18,787 nt of DNA from a virus (taxonomy: Duplodnaviria > Heunggongvirae > Uroviricota > Caudoviricetes), in IMG/VR virus record IMGVR_UViG_2778261532_000018, positions 1-18,787 of that record. One strand, written 5' to 3'. The notes beneath the pieces are model-generated. The model was given only the letters and a program-made list of their open reading frames with translations. It did no database searches and was not told the origin of the DNA. Below are positions 1 through 14,338 of this stretch, piece by piece. The position numbers and the translations under genes were made by a program. The first letter of the stretch is position 1, and each line of letters starts with the position of its first letter.

Positions 1-411
1 ATGGATCAGGTAGTCATTTTTAAACAAATATTTGATAAAGTTCGAAACGATTTAAACTATCAATGGTTTTATTCTGAGCTAAAACGTCACAATGTCTCAC
101 ATTACATTTACTATTTAGCCACAGAGAATGTTCATATTGTATTAAAAAATGATAATATAGTGTTATTAAAGGGCCTAAAAAACATTGTGTCTGTCAAATT
201 TTCAAAGGATAGGCATCTTATAGAAACGACCTCTAATAAGCTGAAATCCAGAGAGATCACATTTCAGGAATACAGAAGAAACCTTGCTAAAGCAGGAGTT
301 TTTCGGTGGGTTACAAATATCCACGAACAAAAAAGATATTACTATACCTTTGATAAATCATTACTCTTTACTGAAAACATACAGAGCACATCACAAATAT
401 TTCCACACTAA
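1..411 (+). CDS. DUF1398-family (YbcV-like) prophage protein; ORF starts exactly at window edge so may be 5' partial
   Basis: 136-aa ORF on the strand opposite the lysis cassette, the position lambda uses for bor; resembles E. coli DLP12 YbcV as I recall it. Confidence 0.4.
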
Positions 412-709: not shown

Positions 710-967
710 CTACTTCGCTTTTGCTTCCGCTCGCTTACGCCGGCGCTCTTCTTTCCTCTCGGCTTTTGCCATGTCCATGAATGCCTGCATGATCGAGTTC
801 CGCATCATGTAGCTAACAAAGTGATGATTGACACAGCCGTTGAGGCGCAGCTGCTCGCCAAACTCATCCACCGAGGCCAATGCTTCCATCATGCCCTTCT
901 CGCCTTTCATGAACTCTGAGAAGTCGCGCCCCGCTCTGGAGGCGCATTCAATGACACGATCAATCAT
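710..967 (-). CDS. Hypothetical protein, translationally coupled to upstream KilA-N gene (possible C-terminal part of a split antirepressor-like gene)
   Basis: 85-aa ORF whose ATG overlaps the stop of the 964-1461 ORF in an ATGA motif (964-967). Confidence 0.35.
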   Translation of the reverse strand: MIDRVIECASRAGRDFSEFMKGEKGMMEALASVDEFGEQLRLNGCVNHHFVSYMMRNSIMQAFMDMAKAERKEERRRKRAEAKAK

Positions 968-1461
968 CCCGGAAGCCCGGGGATCGTAATCTGCAGCTGG
1001 TTAGCCAGGGAGTTAATCTCAGCGACCAACACTGGCTTCGTATAGCGCCATGCTGCCAGCCCTTGTCCGCAGAAGCTCGCCATGTCTTTCTTCTGGTCAA
1101 ACTCATGACATTTCATGTTGAGCTGCGCACTTAAGCTGTTGCGATGCTGAAGTTCTCCGGTGAAGTAGTCATCGAGGACTTTATAGGCCGCGTACTTGAA
1201 CCCGGGGTTTAGCCATGCTGCATAATCATAAGCAACAAACTTCCCGCCATATGTTCCACCGTGTACACCGCGCTCAGTAAAAACCACAGATTCGTGGTTT
1301 TTCTCCAGCTCGGCTAAGAACTCTTTGGTCTGCTTGTTTCGCAGGTAGTAGTACGGAGATTCAGATTCACTTTTACCACTGGCTTTCCACATATCAGTGA
1401 GGCAGATCATGCCATCTTCACCGATACGAATTGGTTGATTGAAGAGGGTTAATGATTTCAT
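964..1461 (-). CDS. KilA-N domain-containing protein
   Basis: 165-aa ORF, N-terminus MKSLTLFNQPIRIGEDGMICLTDMWKASGK resembles KilA-N/antirepressor N-terminal domains; ATG at 1461 with AGGT upstream. Confidence 0.5.
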   Translation of the reverse strand: MKSLTLFNQPIRIGEDGMICLTDMWKASGKSESESPYYYLRNKQTKEFLAELEKNHESVVFTERGVHGGTYGGKFVAYDYAAWLNPGFKYAAYKVLDDYFTGELQHRNSLSAQLNMKCHEFDQKKDMASFCGQGLAAWRYTKPVLVAEINSLANQLQITIPGLPG

Positions 1462-1664: not shown

Positions 1665-1919
1665 TTATTTCAGGCATTGCGTCCTGATGTACTCCTGCAT
1701 TTCGATAGTCGCGTTAGCATCAGCAAGCTCCTTTGTATATCTGGCGTCGAGTTCTGCTACATCATGTTGACGCTTCTGCATGTCAGCGATTGTGGATGTG
1801 GCCTTATCGCGCTGCTCTTTGTAGGTAATGGCGTTATCACGGTAATGATTAACAGCCCATGACAGGCAGACGATGATGCAGATAACCAGAGCGGAGATAA
1901 TCGCGGTTACTCTGCTCAT
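1665..1919 (-). CDS. Rz: Rz i-spanin, internally shortened (84 aa versus about 153 aa in lambda)
   Basis: N-terminal 65-70 aa match lambda Rz including the TM segment ([34 protein letters not shown]); C-terminus resembles the lambda Rz end; the central region is absent. ATGA overlap with R stop. Confidence 0.75.
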
Positions 1920-2392
1920 ACCTCAATCTCTCTGACCATTCCGCCAGCTTCTTTGAATTTTGCAATCAGGTTGTCAGCCTTATGCTCGAACTGACCATAA
2001 CCAGCCCCCGGCAGTGAAGCCCAGATATTACTGCAACGGTCGATTGCCTGACGAATATCACCGCGGTCAATCATCGGTAAAGCGCCACGCTCTTTAATCT
2101 GCTGCAATGCCACAGCATCCTGACTTTTGGGAGAGAAGTCTTTCAGGCCAAGCTGCTTGCGATAGGCATCCCACCAACGGGAAAGAAGTTGGTAACGTCC
2201 GGCGGCTGTTGATTTGAGTTTTGGGTTTAGCGTGACAAGTTTGCGAGGGTGATCGGAGTAATCAGTGAATAGCTCTCCTCCTACAATGACGTCATAACCA
2301 TGATTTCTGGTTTTCTGACGTCCGTTATCAGTTCCCTCTGACCACGCCAGCATATCGAGGAACGCCTTACGTTGATTATTGATTTCCACCAT
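1916..2392 (-). CDS. R: Endolysin R (lytic transglycosylase)
   Basis: 158-aa product essentially matches lambda R ([45 protein letters not shown]...); start overlaps the end of S as in lambda. Confidence 0.95.
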
Positions 2393-2699
2393 CTTCTACT
2401 CCGGCTTTTTTAGCAGCGAAGCGTTTGATAAGCGAACCAATCGAGTCAGTACCGATGTAGCCGATGAACACGCTCGTTATATAAGCGAGATTGCTACTTA
2501 GTCCGGCGAAGTCGAGAAGGTCACGAATGAACCAGGCGATAATGGCGCACATCGTTGCGTCGATTACTGTTTTTGTAAACGCACCGCCATTATATCTGCC
2601 GCGAAGGTACGCCATTGCAAACGCAAGGATTGCCCCGATGCCTTGTTCCTTTGCCGCGAGAATGGCGGCTAACAGGTCATGTTTTTCTGGCATCTTCAT
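2376..2699 (-). CDS. S: Holin S (class I, dual-start S107/S105)
   Basis: 107-aa product matches lambda S ([39 protein letters not shown]...); the ATGAAGATG dual start motif is present. Confidence 0.95.
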
Positions 2700-2941
2700 G
2701 TCTTACCCCCAATAAGGGGATTTGCTCTATTTAATTAGGAATAAGGTCGATTACTGATAGAACAAATCCAGGCTACTGTGTTTAGTAATCAGATTTGTTC
2801 GTGACCGATATGCACGGGCAAAACGGCATGAGGTTGTTAGCGCAGCCTCCTGCCACCTGCTTTCACGAAGGTCATATGTAGAAGGCCGCAGCATAACTAT
2901 CACTGATGAATTCAGGATAGCCAGTGGCTACGGCTTAGTTA

Positions 2942-3017
2942 TGGTGCTGGTTAACGGACTTGAACCGCTACCCATTCGCTTACAAGGCGACGGCTCTACC
3001 ATTGGAGCTAAACCAGC
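2942..3017 (-). tRNA. tRNA, predicted anticodon UGU (Thr)
   Basis: Manual cloverleaf on minus strand: acceptor GCTGGTT/AACCAGC 7/7 bp, D stem GCTC/GAGC, anticodon stem 4/5 bp with loop CTTGTAA, T arm AGCGG-TTCAAGT-CCGTT, discriminator A, encoded CCA. Confidence 0.6.
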
Positions 3018-3022
3018 ATATT

Positions 3023-3097
3023 TGGCGGGACAGCGTGGACTCGAACCACGATAAGAAGGTTAACAGCCTTCCGTAATGACCTTTATACGACTGACCC
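3023..3097 (-). tRNA. tRNA-like gene, predicted anticodon GUU (Asn-like); weaker fold
   Basis: Minus strand: anticodon arm GAAGG-CTGTTAA-CCTTC and T arm CGTGG-TTCGAGT-CCACG with loops identical to E. coli tRNA-Asn as I recall it; discriminator G, encoded CCA; one U-U mismatch each in acceptor and D stems; 4-nt variable loop. Confidence 0.45.
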
Positions 3098-3099
3098 AA

Positions 3100-3187
3100 A
3101 TAAAAAAGCCACCGTTGCAACTTAAGAGTCACTAACGGCAGCTTATGCGAATAGTGTTGCTCATTTGCTCAATGATGTCAACACGTT
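3100..3187 (-). promoter_or_regulatory. Candidate late promoter / Q-utilisation region with leader hairpin
   Basis: Immediately downstream of the Q stop; TTGACA on minus strand at 3176-3181, no convincing -10; hairpin CCGTT...AACGG (3112-3137) followed by a T-run on the minus strand. Assignment is by position. Confidence 0.25.
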
Positions 3188-3676
3188 CTATGCTACATGT
3201 TTAATTTTCTCTACACGTTTCCGGTTTTTAAACGCACTATCCAGAACCGGGCAAATCATAAACAACGAGGCATTAAGGATTTCGTCAACTTCCCGTCGAC
3301 AGGTTGCGAGCGATGGTTTTTGAATGCGCCCGCCGCCACGGCATAACATCTTGCGAGGTCTTGCGACGCGATGATAGTAAGATGCAATGGCGTGCTTGGA
3401 AGAACCATGAGCGTAGTAGCTGAGGAGGATGCCAAAGGCTTTCTTGTCAATGCACATGACGGAATCGACGACCTGAGAAATCAACATTCCATCATCATCA
3501 TTGCACATTGGCCTTGTCATAACTCTTCCCGGCTCTACGCTCTCCATGAACTTCGCTATTACGCTGCTCATACGCTTTTCCAGACGACCTGAATAAACCC
3601 ATGCGCCCCACAGTTCAAGCCAGCCATTCAGCCACTCATGCTGTTCTTTGGTGAGGTTTAGTTCTCTTATGCCCAC
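3188..3676 (-). CDS. Q: Late-gene antiterminator Q (non-lambda Q family, phage 82/21/933W-like)
   Basis: 162-aa ORF directly upstream of the late promoter/tRNA/S region; unrelated to lambda Q but resembles Q proteins of other lambdoid phages as I recall them. Confidence 0.7.
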
Positions 3677-4338: not shown

Positions 4339-4937
4339 GCAGCCTCACTTCTGCTGTTTCGCAGTTTTTTAAGTTTCTGTTGATACTCCGCCTTGATGGC
4401 CCTGCACTCTTCGACAGTCCAGCGATGGCGGTTATGGTTTGATTCGATTTCGTCTACTGCTTCCTGCCCGATGCGGTTAATCAGTTCGACGCGATACGGA
4501 ACGAGATTTCCGCTTTTATGTTGGTTGCACACCACGCATTGCTTGTGAATATTGCGTTCATCAAATCGGAGTTGAGGCGCCGCAGCAGTTGTCCGGTAAT
4601 GCCCGGCATCCCACTGAGCAGACGTGAGCGTTCCGCACGAGATACATGGTAAGTCGCGGTCTCTTTCTCTGATGAAGGCGTTTACGGCTTGTTGGGCTTG
4701 TTTAATCCAGTAACTGCGGGGCTTTAAGGCGAGTTTTCGAATCTTAAGTTTATCTTTCTGTCTCTGATCCTCTCGTCGTCGTTTCTTCTCTGCTGCTTTT
4801 TCCGCTTTTTCGCGTTCTTTGCTTCGTCGTTCGAGTGCTATCTTTGTTCCACAAATCTCATTACACCAATATTGATTTTGATATTTTGGTATAAACCATT
4901 CATTGCAACATTTACATTTCCTTCGATAGATTCGCAT
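4335..4937 (-). CDS. ninG: NinG (Rap) recombination protein with recoded N-terminus
   Basis: ATG at 4937 preceded by AGGAG; product [15 protein letters not shown]... becomes lambda-NinG-like from [18 protein letters not shown] onward; the first ~30 codons are AT-rich and divergent. Confidence 0.8.
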
Positions 4938-5478
4938 AAGTGCTCCTTTCGTTGCCGGAAAAATCACCGTAATACTTATCTCGGGCTTCTTCAGCAACTA
5001 GTACCGCTAACTCCAGATCATCAAAGCATCCGAAGTGTTTACTCTTGCCATGGAAACCTAGCCTAACATTCCATTTTTTCTGTCGTTTGTGCCAAGTAAC
5101 TCCTCTGCAACCTGATTTGCTATTCTTTCGGATCCTTATATTTCTTGAATTTTCTATTGGCAGGCATTCTCTTAAATTTTCTGGCCTATTGTCGGTCCTA
5201 ATTCCATTAACGTGGTCAATTTGACCAGCAGGCCAACGATTATGAGTTATGTAAAAAACTAAGACGTGAGTTTTATATCTACGCCCATCAATCATGATCA
5301 TTGAATAACCGTTGGAATCAAAAGTTCCAGCAACACTATTTAATGCTATCCTTCCCTGAGTGGGAACTTTCCATCTAAATACACCGGTAGATTTATCGAA
5401 ACTTAGTAACTCAAATATCCTTTTAACAGTTAAATCTTCTCTTTTACGGTTACATCGTCTTCGCGCTGGTTTAGCCAT
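4912..5478 (-). CDS. HNH homing endonuclease (HNH_3 plus AP2-like DNA-binding domain) fused to the native ninG start
   Basis: 188-aa ORF; first 9 codons MAKPARRRC sit at the normal ninF/ninG junction; then HNH motif ([16 protein letters not shown]) and AP2-like segment ([27 protein letters not shown]); AT-rich. Confidence 0.75.
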
Positions 5479-13629: not shown

Positions 13630-13690
13630 ATGCATACCAATAACGCTTCACTCGAGGCGTTTTTCGTTATGTATAAATAAGGAGCACACC

Positions 13691-13855
13691 ATGCAATATG
13701 CCATTGCAGGGTGGCCTGTTGCTGGCTGCCCTTCCGAATCTTTACTTGAACGAATCACCCGTAAATTACGTGACGGATGGAAACGCCTTATCGACATACT
13801 TAATCAGCCAGGAGTCCCAAAAAATGGATCAAACACTTATGGCTATCCAGACTAA
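13691..13855 (+). CDS. cIII: CIII (FtsH inhibitor)
   Basis: 54-aa product [54 protein letters not shown] matches lambda CIII; AAGGAG SD. Confidence 0.95.
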   Translation: MQYAIAGWPVAGCPSESLLERITRKLRDGWKRLIDILNQPGVPKNGSNTYGYPD

Positions 13856-13967
13856 ATTCACTATCGCCACTTTTATTGGCGATGAAAAGATGTTTCGTGA
13901 GGCCGTCGACGCTTATAAAAAATGGATATTAATACTGAAACTGAGATCAGGCAAAAGCATTCACTAA
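13824..13967 (+). CDS. kil: Kil (host killing/FtsZ inhibitor)
   Basis: 47-aa product [47 protein letters not shown] as in lambda; overlaps cIII end and gam start. Confidence 0.85.
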
Positions 13968-14338
13968 CCCCCTTTCCTGTTTTCCTAATCAGCCCGGCAT
14001 TTCGCGGGCGATATTTTCACAGCTATTTCAGGAGTTCAGCCATGAACGCTTATTACATTCAGGATCGTCTTGAGGCTCAGAGCTGGGCGCGTCACTACCA
14101 GCAGATCGCCCGTGAAGAGAAAGAGGCAGAACTGGCAGACGACATGGAAAAAGGTCTTCCACAGCACCTGTTTGAATCACTCTGCATCGATCATTTGCAA
14201 CGCTGCGGGGCCAGCAAAAAAGCCATTACCCGTGCGTTTGATGACGATGTTGAGTTTCAGGAGCGCATGGCAGAACACATCCGGTACATGGTTGAAACCA
14301 TTGCTCACCACCAGGTTGATATTGATTCAGAGGTATAA
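13922..14338 (+). CDS. gam: Gam (RecBCD inhibitor)
   Basis: 138-aa product [36 protein letters not shown]... matches lambda Gam. Confidence 0.95.

Follow-up and report, generated by a model that had tools for sequence, protein, structure and literature searches.

Why would a temperate, lambda-like phage carry two tRNA genes where its late transcript begins, between the gene for its Q antiterminator and its lysis genes? The question arises from an 18,787-nt stretch of phage DNA (the whole of what was analysed, referred to below as the window), a lambda-like mosaic in orientation opposite to the lambda map, about half of which is 97% identical to lambda. Lambda itself has no tRNA genes; an earlier reading of the window, made from the letters only (the sequence-only reading), had stated this absence for the site, and it was confirmed.

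Two tRNA genes between the late terminator and the holin gene

ARAGORN, run on the complete window, returned exactly two tRNA genes, both on the minus (late) strand. tRNA-Thr(UGU) spans 2942..3017 (76 nt) and tRNA-Asn(GUU) spans 3023..3097 (75 nt). The spacer between them (3018..3022, minus strand, 5 nt), which was read directly from the sequence, differs from that of phage 21 at one base. This independent predictor drew a complete cloverleaf for both genes, with the anticodons (tgt and gtt) at position 34, and Rfam RF00005 scored tRNA-Thr at 58.1 bits (E = 1.8e-10) and tRNA-Asn at 55.3 bits (E = 9.9e-10) against a gathering score of 29. Both programs gave the same boundaries and anticodons as the sequence-only reading, which had placed two adjacent genes, 5 nt apart, on the late strand downstream of a candidate late promoter and ahead of the holin gene S; they indeed lie on the minus strand, after pR′ and tR′ and before S. 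That reading had called the Thr gene the first of the two, which is so by coordinate, but transcription has Asn first and Thr second. A permissive Rfam rescan of 2650-3250 (E ≤ 1) detected no third tRNA, tRNA remnant or other structured RNA.

The finer structure bore out most of what had been noted. The Thr tRNA was said to fold cleanly with anticodon UGU; the anticodon stands, but the fold is not clean, as the uppermost position of the anticodon stem is a G27•A43 mismatch, which leaves a stem of 4 bp. tRNA-Asn has a 4-nt variable loop and the discriminator G73. Its anticodon and T loops are, as had been stated, those of E. coli asnT (7 of 7 positions identical in each), and the U-U mismatches reported in its acceptor and D stems are present as U4•U69 and U13•U22. 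Overall identity of the phage tRNAs to the host genes is only 58-64%. We take the recognition set of AsnRS in E. coli to be the anticodon plus G73, and the identity set of ThrRS to be G1:C72, C2:G71, G35 and U36. The acceptor end of tRNA-Thr carries G1:C72 and C2:G71, and when both tRNAs were examined for the presence of the synthetase-recognition nucleotides, all of them were found. The gene identity and intactness of both tRNAs are nearly certain. To judge from their sequences, they are two intact and probably functional tRNA genes of the known phage 21/Sf6-type cassette, situated at the 5′ end of the late operon.

The order of elements on the transcribed strand is Q, pR′, tR′, tRNA-Asn, tRNA-Thr, S. 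The Q gene (3188..3676, minus strand) encodes a 162-aa antiterminator of the phage 21 type, identical to phage 21 Q at 160 of 162 residues (Pfam PF06530, Phage_antitermQ, E = 1e-24). It is followed by a late promoter pR′, also of the phage 21 type (3146..3181, minus strand), with a −35 element at 3181-3176, a Q-binding element at 3173-3158, a −10 element at 3158-3153 and a start at 3146. The late leader with tR′ (3098..3144, minus strand) has a sigma-dependent pause element at 3145-3139 and a hairpin with a U-tract that extends to the first base of tRNA-Asn. Promoter and terminator coordinates were carried over by alignment and regular expression from the curated phage 21 record OL657228.1, in which the terminator annotation derives from PMID 1704887. 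The promoter, Q-binding element, pause element and tR′ match that record base for base, save for one T fewer in the U-tract. A simple sigma-70 consensus scan missed pR′, so it was assigned by homology to a promoter that has been studied experimentally. The tR′ leader folds to −20.2 kcal/mol (z = −4.77), and none of 200 shuffled sequences was as stable.

Downstream of tRNA-Thr, an untranslated spacer of about 240 nt (2700..2941, minus strand) is conserved with Sf6 by alignment and yielded no Rfam match at E ≤ 1 and no consensus promoter or terminator. It leads to S (2376..2699, minus strand), a holin/antiholin gene of the lambda type (S107/S105; Pfam PF05106, E = 2.4e-30) with the layout of Sf6 genes 60/61. 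S is the first protein gene on the late transcript and R comes after it. Consensus scanning, which also misses the genuine pR′ and tR′, detected neither a promoter belonging to the tRNAs (between tR′ and the tRNAs) nor a terminator after them. Because tR′ ends where tRNA-Asn starts and no consensus promoter lies between, the tRNAs would be the first products of the Q-antiterminated late transcript. On this model pR′ would fire constitutively, with transcripts halting at tR′ next to tRNA-Asn. Build-up of Q21 would then yield terminator-resistant RNA polymerase, and the tRNAs would be transcribed first, followed by S, R and the structural genes. Excision would presumably be by RNase P with trimming of the 3′ ends; since both genes encode CCA, its addition would be unnecessary.

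The pair is a known cassette of temperate enterobacterial phages

The sequence-only reading had set this isoacceptor pair apart from the tRNA sets of other lambdoid phages, with the implication that it was unusual. It is instead the standard pair of phage 21 and Sf6, which GenBank and RefSeq annotate and PMC3636060 describes; the only set from which it is distinct is that of the Stx phages, ileZ-argN-argO, probably the one used there for comparison. Tandem Asn-GUU and Thr-UGU genes were reported downstream of Q in SfI in 2013, and one or both tRNAs at the same site in Sf6, ST64T, PS3 and phage 21 (PMC3636060). The phage 21 genome announcement gives two tRNA genes (PMC9119081), and the paper describing BTP1 does not mention tRNAs. 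The cassette is already known: standard pipelines call it, and it has been in print since 2013.

The cassette region is 98-99% identical to the annotated copies of phage 21, Sf6, SfI and BTP1 (97.9% against phage 21 and Sf6 over 241 nt). Phage records with a high-identity match to this 241-nt region numbered 91 (in 53, the match covered at least 80% of its length) and included phage 21, Sf6, SfI, BTP1, SPN9CC and HK446; many of the 91 annotate tRNA-Asn and tRNA-Thr. Part of the region was matched in 958 of 5426 complete E. coli genomes (~18%), and RefSeq annotates both tRNAs among the matches listed for E. coli genomes; the full-length Thr gene is present in 340 complete E. coli genomes (~6%). 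A scan of a genome collection covered six species representatives and has little bearing on spread beyond the Enterobacteriaceae. Among temperate enterobacterial phages it is probably the commonest tRNA module of the kind that may counter tRNA-cleaving immune systems.

In phage 21 (OL657228.1, CPT_21_64/65), Sf6, SfI, BTP1 and HK446 the arrangement is the same, Asn, 5 nt and Thr, in the slot after tR′ and before the holin gene. Relative to phage 21, tRNA-Asn is identical at 75 of 75 positions and tRNA-Thr at 75 of 76, the difference falling at position 26. The lysis genes differ in kind, as the window has the lambda/Sf6 type (S107 holin) whereas phage 21 has a pinholin and SAR endolysin. Stx phages of the 933W type carry ileZ-argN-argO in this slot, from the late promoter/terminator to the lysis genes. 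Their tRNAs are Q-dependent too, set between Q/pR′ and stx, and are usually read as codon supplementation for stx and the late genes. They are Ile and Arg rare-codon isoacceptors, and the window is without toxin cargo. Regulation at the Stx-phage site is covered in PMC7547250.

An Asn(GUU) gene followed by an adjacent Thr(UGU) gene, 2 nt apart, is also found in P1 (AF234173.1), in a different genomic context. The P1 Thr is ~80% identical to the window Thr and the P1 Asn essentially unrelated to its counterpart. The Asn and Thr pairing recurs with unrelated sequences in P1 and in an N4-like phage, these being the versions with which the window pair was compared.

The cloverleaves of both tRNAs are maintained by compensatory change

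IMG/VR was scanned with patterns in which the D and T arms were constrained and the anticodon stems were not, and 155 contigs were recovered. ARAGORN found 152 tRNA clusters on these contigs, 125 of them exactly Asn followed by Thr; in the remainder Phe, Arg or Gly was added or Thr was missing. tRNA-Lys was absent from all 152 clusters on the 155 viral contigs. The window tRNA-Asn is the majority allele (98 viral contigs) and is identical in phage 21, ST64T, JLK-2012 and HK446, so that one sequence spans phages of Escherichia, Shigella and Salmonella. The Thr anticodon arm, though free to vary in the search pattern, is identical in 123 of 128 viral copies.

Covariation was assessed with 22 distinct alleles per tRNA; with the D and T arms and the loops held constant by the search patterns, only the acceptor and anticodon stems were free. 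Six pairs of tRNA-Asn showed compensatory double changes (covariation score 0.138 against 0.062 for shuffled alignments, reached by 0 of 500), as did five pairs of tRNA-Thr (0.125 against 0.068, again 0 of 500), and controls with a slid register were far lower for both tRNAs. Both cloverleaves are thereby supported by covariation. In tRNA-Thr, pairs 3:70 to 6:67 covary, 2:71 is conserved in all 22 alleles and 1:72 in 21, and the G27•A43 mismatch is kept in 22 of 22. In tRNA-Asn, U13•U22 is unpaired in every one of the 22 alleles, 4:69 is unpaired in 20 and G73 is retained in 21. The constancy of these non-pairs fits maintained features rather than drift. The earlier suggestion that tRNA-Asn may be a degenerate copy, made on account of its mismatches, was rejected in view of this conservation and covariation.

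Decay is seen elsewhere in the family. The Thr slot of ST64T is scrambled, and phages of the JLK-2012 type carry a phage/host Thr chimera, as does contig L158. The cassette also occurs behind other leaders and Q types (HK446 and Klebsiella phages) and is therefore not tied to one module.

The anticodon arms lack the published recognition motifs of OLD-family tRNases

The anticodons UGU and GUU match those of host tRNAs targeted by published nucleases. P2 Old underlies classic P2-lambda interference: once lambda Gam has activated it, it kills by excising the anticodon arm from host tRNA-Thr(UGU) (PMC12445682, NAR 2025). In the same study, the Thr tRNA of phage 21 (tRNA-Thr21) protected Old+ Gam+ cells and withstood cleavage in vitro, a resistance attributed to its shorter anticodon stem and to C28U/G42A, which destroys the CNG motif. 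The window tRNA-Thr shows these features of tRNA-Thr21, the shortened anticodon stem and C28U/G42A. The Thr(UGU) tRNA of HK446 provided strong counter-defence for HK97, HK542 and Bas34 (2026 preprint); HK446 carries the same cassette, and its Thr is the phage 21 allele. Plasmid-borne copies of the Thr alleles from phage 21 and HK446 restored ACA decoding or phage growth (PMC12445682; 2026 preprint).

The second nuclease whose rules bear on the pair is AriB of PARIS. Its targets are Lys(UUU), Thr(UGU) and Asn(GUU), in which the cut falls between positions 40 and 41, beside a UAAU motif; in the T5 tRNA-Lys, resistance has been traced to positions 39 and 41 (PMC12409363). When anticodon arms were scored against the published P2-OLD and AriB rules, host thrU and asnT were found to have UAAU and, in addition, CNG on both strands. 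The window Thr arm (UAAG, C/G, UCG/CGA, 4-bp stem) and the window Asn arm (UAAC, C/U, AAG/CUU) are both without UAAU and without CNG on either strand. A parallel is provided by virulent phages, in which T5 tRNA-Lys/Thr/Asn act against PARIS and T4/T5-like tRNA-Thr(UGU) against P2-OLD: the window pair shares its anticodons with two of the three main AriB targets and with the prime OLD target, and in both cases the substitutions lie in the anticodon stem, at the cleavage site or close to it (28, 39, 41, 42, 27:43). The window differs from these in that a temperate phage carries two tRNAs, without tRNA-Lys, under late Q-dependent expression, and not a large array.

Gam is the known trigger of P2 Old (PMC12445682; 2026 preprint). 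The window has a gam gene (13922..14338, plus strand), noted here as context, whose product, a RecBCD inhibitor, is identical to lambda Gam at 134 of 138 residues (97%), and its phage would therefore be expected to trigger Old. In the model that we favour, OLD-family Toprim tRNases (P2 Old, PARIS AriB) of competing P2/P4-type elements would cleave both host tRNAs, and the cassette tRNAs would sustain late protein synthesis after such a defence has fired. It is probable, in our judgement, that the Asn/Thr cassette is an intact, late-expressed pair that replaces host tRNAs cleaved by OLD-family tRNases. An anti-defence role is likely for tRNA-Thr, and plausible for tRNA-Asn and in the native phage context. 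By inference, Asn would work as Thr does, C26 in the window Thr would be equivalent to A26, and the phage would benefit from the cassette when it is expressed late, in the native context.

We raise more tentatively, as a possibility that at present we would not call probable, that tRNA-Asn is a second nuclease-resistant tRNA and that the pair forms a minimal two-tRNA counter-defence module against the OLD-family Toprim tRNases of P2/P4 elements. Three observations would be explained if Asn were also resistant. First, Asn and Thr recur together, independently, in lambdoid, P22-like, P1 and N4-like phages. Second, tRNA-Asn is 100% identical in ST64T despite the decayed Thr of that phage. Third, an unrelated Asn body that occupies the same slot in contig L097 and four other contigs is also without UAAU and CNG. 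In P1, Thr retains CNG and Asn retains UAAU. If true, a second resistant tRNA in the form of Asn would be a modest extension of a published principle, not a new one.

Several points weigh against an anti-defence role. The preferred targets of OLD are Thr, Gly, fMet, Val and Pro, and Asn is not among them (2026 preprint). Escape from PARIS needs a resistant tRNA-Lys (PMC12409363), and full PARIS evasion was rejected as a function of the cassette in view of the 152 clusters without tRNA-Lys. The Thr(UGU) tRNA alone failed to rescue lambda from OLD, and HK446's own escape has been credited to the protein inhibitor Oad2, its authors suggesting another, lysogeny-related purpose for the tRNA (2026 preprint). 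A resistant tRNA may also arrive too late, since the tRNAs are late products, whereas OLD is set off early by Gam and ACA codons abound in the early genes. The loss of short motifs may be simple divergence, given that the phage tRNAs share so little of their sequence with the host genes, and motifs do occur in two other Asn alleles, that of Klebsiella phages having CNG on each strand and that of P1 having UAAU.

Codon usage and alternative functions

The alternative that survives best, which we nonetheless consider unlikely, is codon supplementation: the tRNAs would raise decoding of ACA and AAC/AAU because the phage uses these codons more than its host, and phage protein synthesis would be faster as a result. 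The window ORFs, mostly early genes, do use ACA at 15.9 per 1000 codons (33% of Thr codons), compared with 8.6 per 1000 (16% of Thr codons) in a K-12 host sample of 46 genes. A similar difference (17.3 in SfI, 7.1 in the host) has been reported and a supplementation role proposed for the Thr tRNA (PMC3636060), and host tRNA-Thr(UGU) is single-copy and of low abundance (PMC12445682). However, the ACA excess is limited to early genes and is equalled in those of lambda (15.6 per 1000), which has no tRNAs, while the late genes, which are co-transcribed with the tRNAs, are host-like (8.1 per 1000 in lambda; 10.1 per 1000, or 15.5% of Thr codons, in phage 21).

Asn codons likewise fail to show the enrichment that supplementation would call for. 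Per 1000 codons, late genes have 35.1 of them in phage 21 and 35.9 in lambda, against 40.6 in the host sample; the values for the window ORFs and lambda early genes are 47.6 and 43.6. SfI has no Asn codon bias either (PMC3636060). In addition, overexpression of host thrU cannot replace the phage tRNA under OLD (PMC12445682; 2026 preprint). An excess of cognate codons in genes co-expressed with the tRNAs was not found when phage 21 and lambda late genes were compared with the K-12 sample, and since the frequencies of ACA and Asn codons in these late genes resemble those of the host, there is little support for codon supplementation.

A function in lysogens appears more doubtful still, and we regard it as improbable. 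Low read-through of tR′ in the prophage state would supply the host with tRNA, which would compensate for tRNA genes disrupted at attB or tune host translation. Phages with the cassette differ in integration site, and compensation for attB disruption was judged unlikely. Phage 21 uses icd, a gene that encodes no tRNA; integration normally regenerates a target tRNA gene; and the thrW tRNA has the anticodon CGU and not UGU. SfI integrates into thrW (PMC3636060). The lysogen idea draws support from constitutive activity of pR′ in lysogens, as reported in PMC7547250. It is also in keeping with RNA-seq of BTP1 lysogen cultures, where a list of genes with TPM>100 treated the two tRNA genes of the phage separately, implying high expression (PMC7067206), which also speaks, indirectly, for functional genes. 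This signal could nevertheless reflect the unusually high spontaneous induction of BTP1 (PMC5322425). A 'temperate lifestyle' idea for such tRNAs was raised in the 2026 preprint, whose authors propose a lysogen role for the HK446 tRNA. What a function in lysogens leaves unexplained is that the anticodon arms differ from those of the host at the nuclease determinants.

The least credible alternative takes tRNA-Asn, or both tRNAs, for a passenger, decaying or neutral, that travels with the Q21 late-promoter module and has no separate function: the two U•U mismatches of Asn, the loss or scrambling of Thr in ST64T, JLK-2012 and contig L158 and the rare position-26 substitution of the window Thr might suggest it, but it is at odds with an Asn sequence shared across phages of three host genera, the compensated pairs of both tRNAs, the constancy of the Asn non-pairs, the different leaders and Q types behind which the cassette occurs, Thr alleles that were biologically active in two studies (PMC12445682; 2026 preprint) and natural polymorphism at position 26.

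For annotation, the value of the locus is routine, as the cassette is known and widely annotated. Replacement of cleaved host tRNAs, the reading that we prefer, connects it to a finding of 2024-2026 that is of wider interest, namely that phage tRNAs can counter tRNA-cleaving immune systems. The role of the Asn half and the native late arrangement bear on how temperate phages handle defences borne by P2 and P4.

A rare substitution in the window copy of tRNA-Thr

What is particular to the window copy, on comparison of sequences, is the C at Thr position 26 (window position 2992), which is rare in the family. Among 128 viral copies this position is A in 97, G in 31 and C in none, and the window Thr differs from the phage 21 and HK446 alleles here alone. 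Since position 26 alone is freely polymorphic in the family, the change to C26 is probably tolerated. The same base was found in 1 of 346 E. coli records, that of strain PEC41.

Variation of the tRNA cassette among related phages

In five viral contigs (L097 1561-1635, L100 11325-11399, L106 425-499, L125 3137-3211 and L130 541-615) the Asn slot of the cassette, 5 nt upstream of the same tRNA-Thr, is occupied by another tRNA-Asn body. The D, anticodon and T arms of this alternative all differ from those of the window tRNA-Asn; the acceptor stem is identical in the two, including U4•U69. Inspection by eye of the five contigs showed that the UAAU and CNG motifs, the published anticodon-arm recognition motifs of AriB and P2-OLD, are absent from the alternative tRNA-Asn too.

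The Thr slot also varies. Chimeric tRNA-Thr genes, in which the first 25 nt are phage-type, occur at comparison locus L158 (1359-1434) and in phage JLK-2012 (L007 481-556). Past nucleotide 25 the L158 gene is the exact sequence of host thrU, which encodes tRNA-Thr(UGU) in E. coli, including its nuclease-sensitive anticodon arm, and this junction of a phage-type 5′ part with host sequence suggests that a prophage tRNA recombined with the host tRNA gene. The JLK-2012 chimera is damaged further than the L158 version, and ARAGORN returned no tRNA call for it. Phage ST64T (L006 401-560) has a tRNA-Asn gene 100% identical to that of the window, adjoining a Thr slot so scrambled that the tRNA call is lost; tRNA-Asn is thus kept independently of tRNA-Thr.

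Both cassette tRNAs are present in phage HK446 (JQ086372.1, L176 114-269). Neither is annotated in that GenBank record, and a 2026 preprint mentions one single tRNA for this phage. Homology between HK446 and the window starts at the terminator U-tract, a boundary indicating that the tRNA cassette is a module placed behind differing late leaders.

The same two isoacceptors are found together outside the lambdoid phages. P1 carries neighbouring Asn(GUU) and Thr(UGU) genes with 2 nt between them (L009 525-678), and the N4-like phage VEc25 carries both with a third tRNA in between (L010 237-486). Recurrence of the pair in sequences largely unrelated to the lambdoid genes hints at a common selective pressure on these two isoacceptors.

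Position 26 of tRNA-Thr and ACA codon use

Position 26 of the window tRNA-Thr (window 2992) is C, whereas the experimentally tested alleles of phage 21 and HK446 have A. Across all 128 viral copies this position is A (n=97) or G (n=31), and among 346 E. coli records a single one, from strain PEC41 (NZ_CM168023.1), has the C. Two short gut-metagenome contigs from bins assigned to Segatella copri and Collinsella (L171 and L174) contain the enterobacterial phage tRNA-Thr; these are most likely phage contigs that were binned wrongly.

In the lambda genome (L167), ACA is used about twice as often in early as in late genes (15.6 vs 8.1 per 1000 codons). The early/late split in ACA usage is independent of phage tRNA carriage.

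Other features of the window

The Rz spanin ORF (1665-1919, minus strand; only 84 aa) gives a partial Pfam match, covering only positions 7-52 of the 126-position Rz profile, and homology to lambda stops within it, near 1807. Beyond it lie a KilA-N/ORF11CD3 gene (964-1461, minus strand) and then a DUF1398 gene (1-411, plus strand). The spanin has perhaps been shortened or exchanged for another sequence, so that the lysis cassette of the window could be defective. The nin region contains an HNH_3/AP2-domain endonuclease ORF (4912-5478, minus strand; 188 aa) that runs into the beginning of the NinG-like ORF. This endonuclease ORF probably represents an insertion of the homing-endonuclease type that lambda lacks. 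At 13678-13736 on the plus strand the window matches the lambda cIII thermoregulator RNA element over its full length (RF01804; 88.5 bits, E = 8.9e-21), which confirms that its orientation is the reverse of the lambda map.
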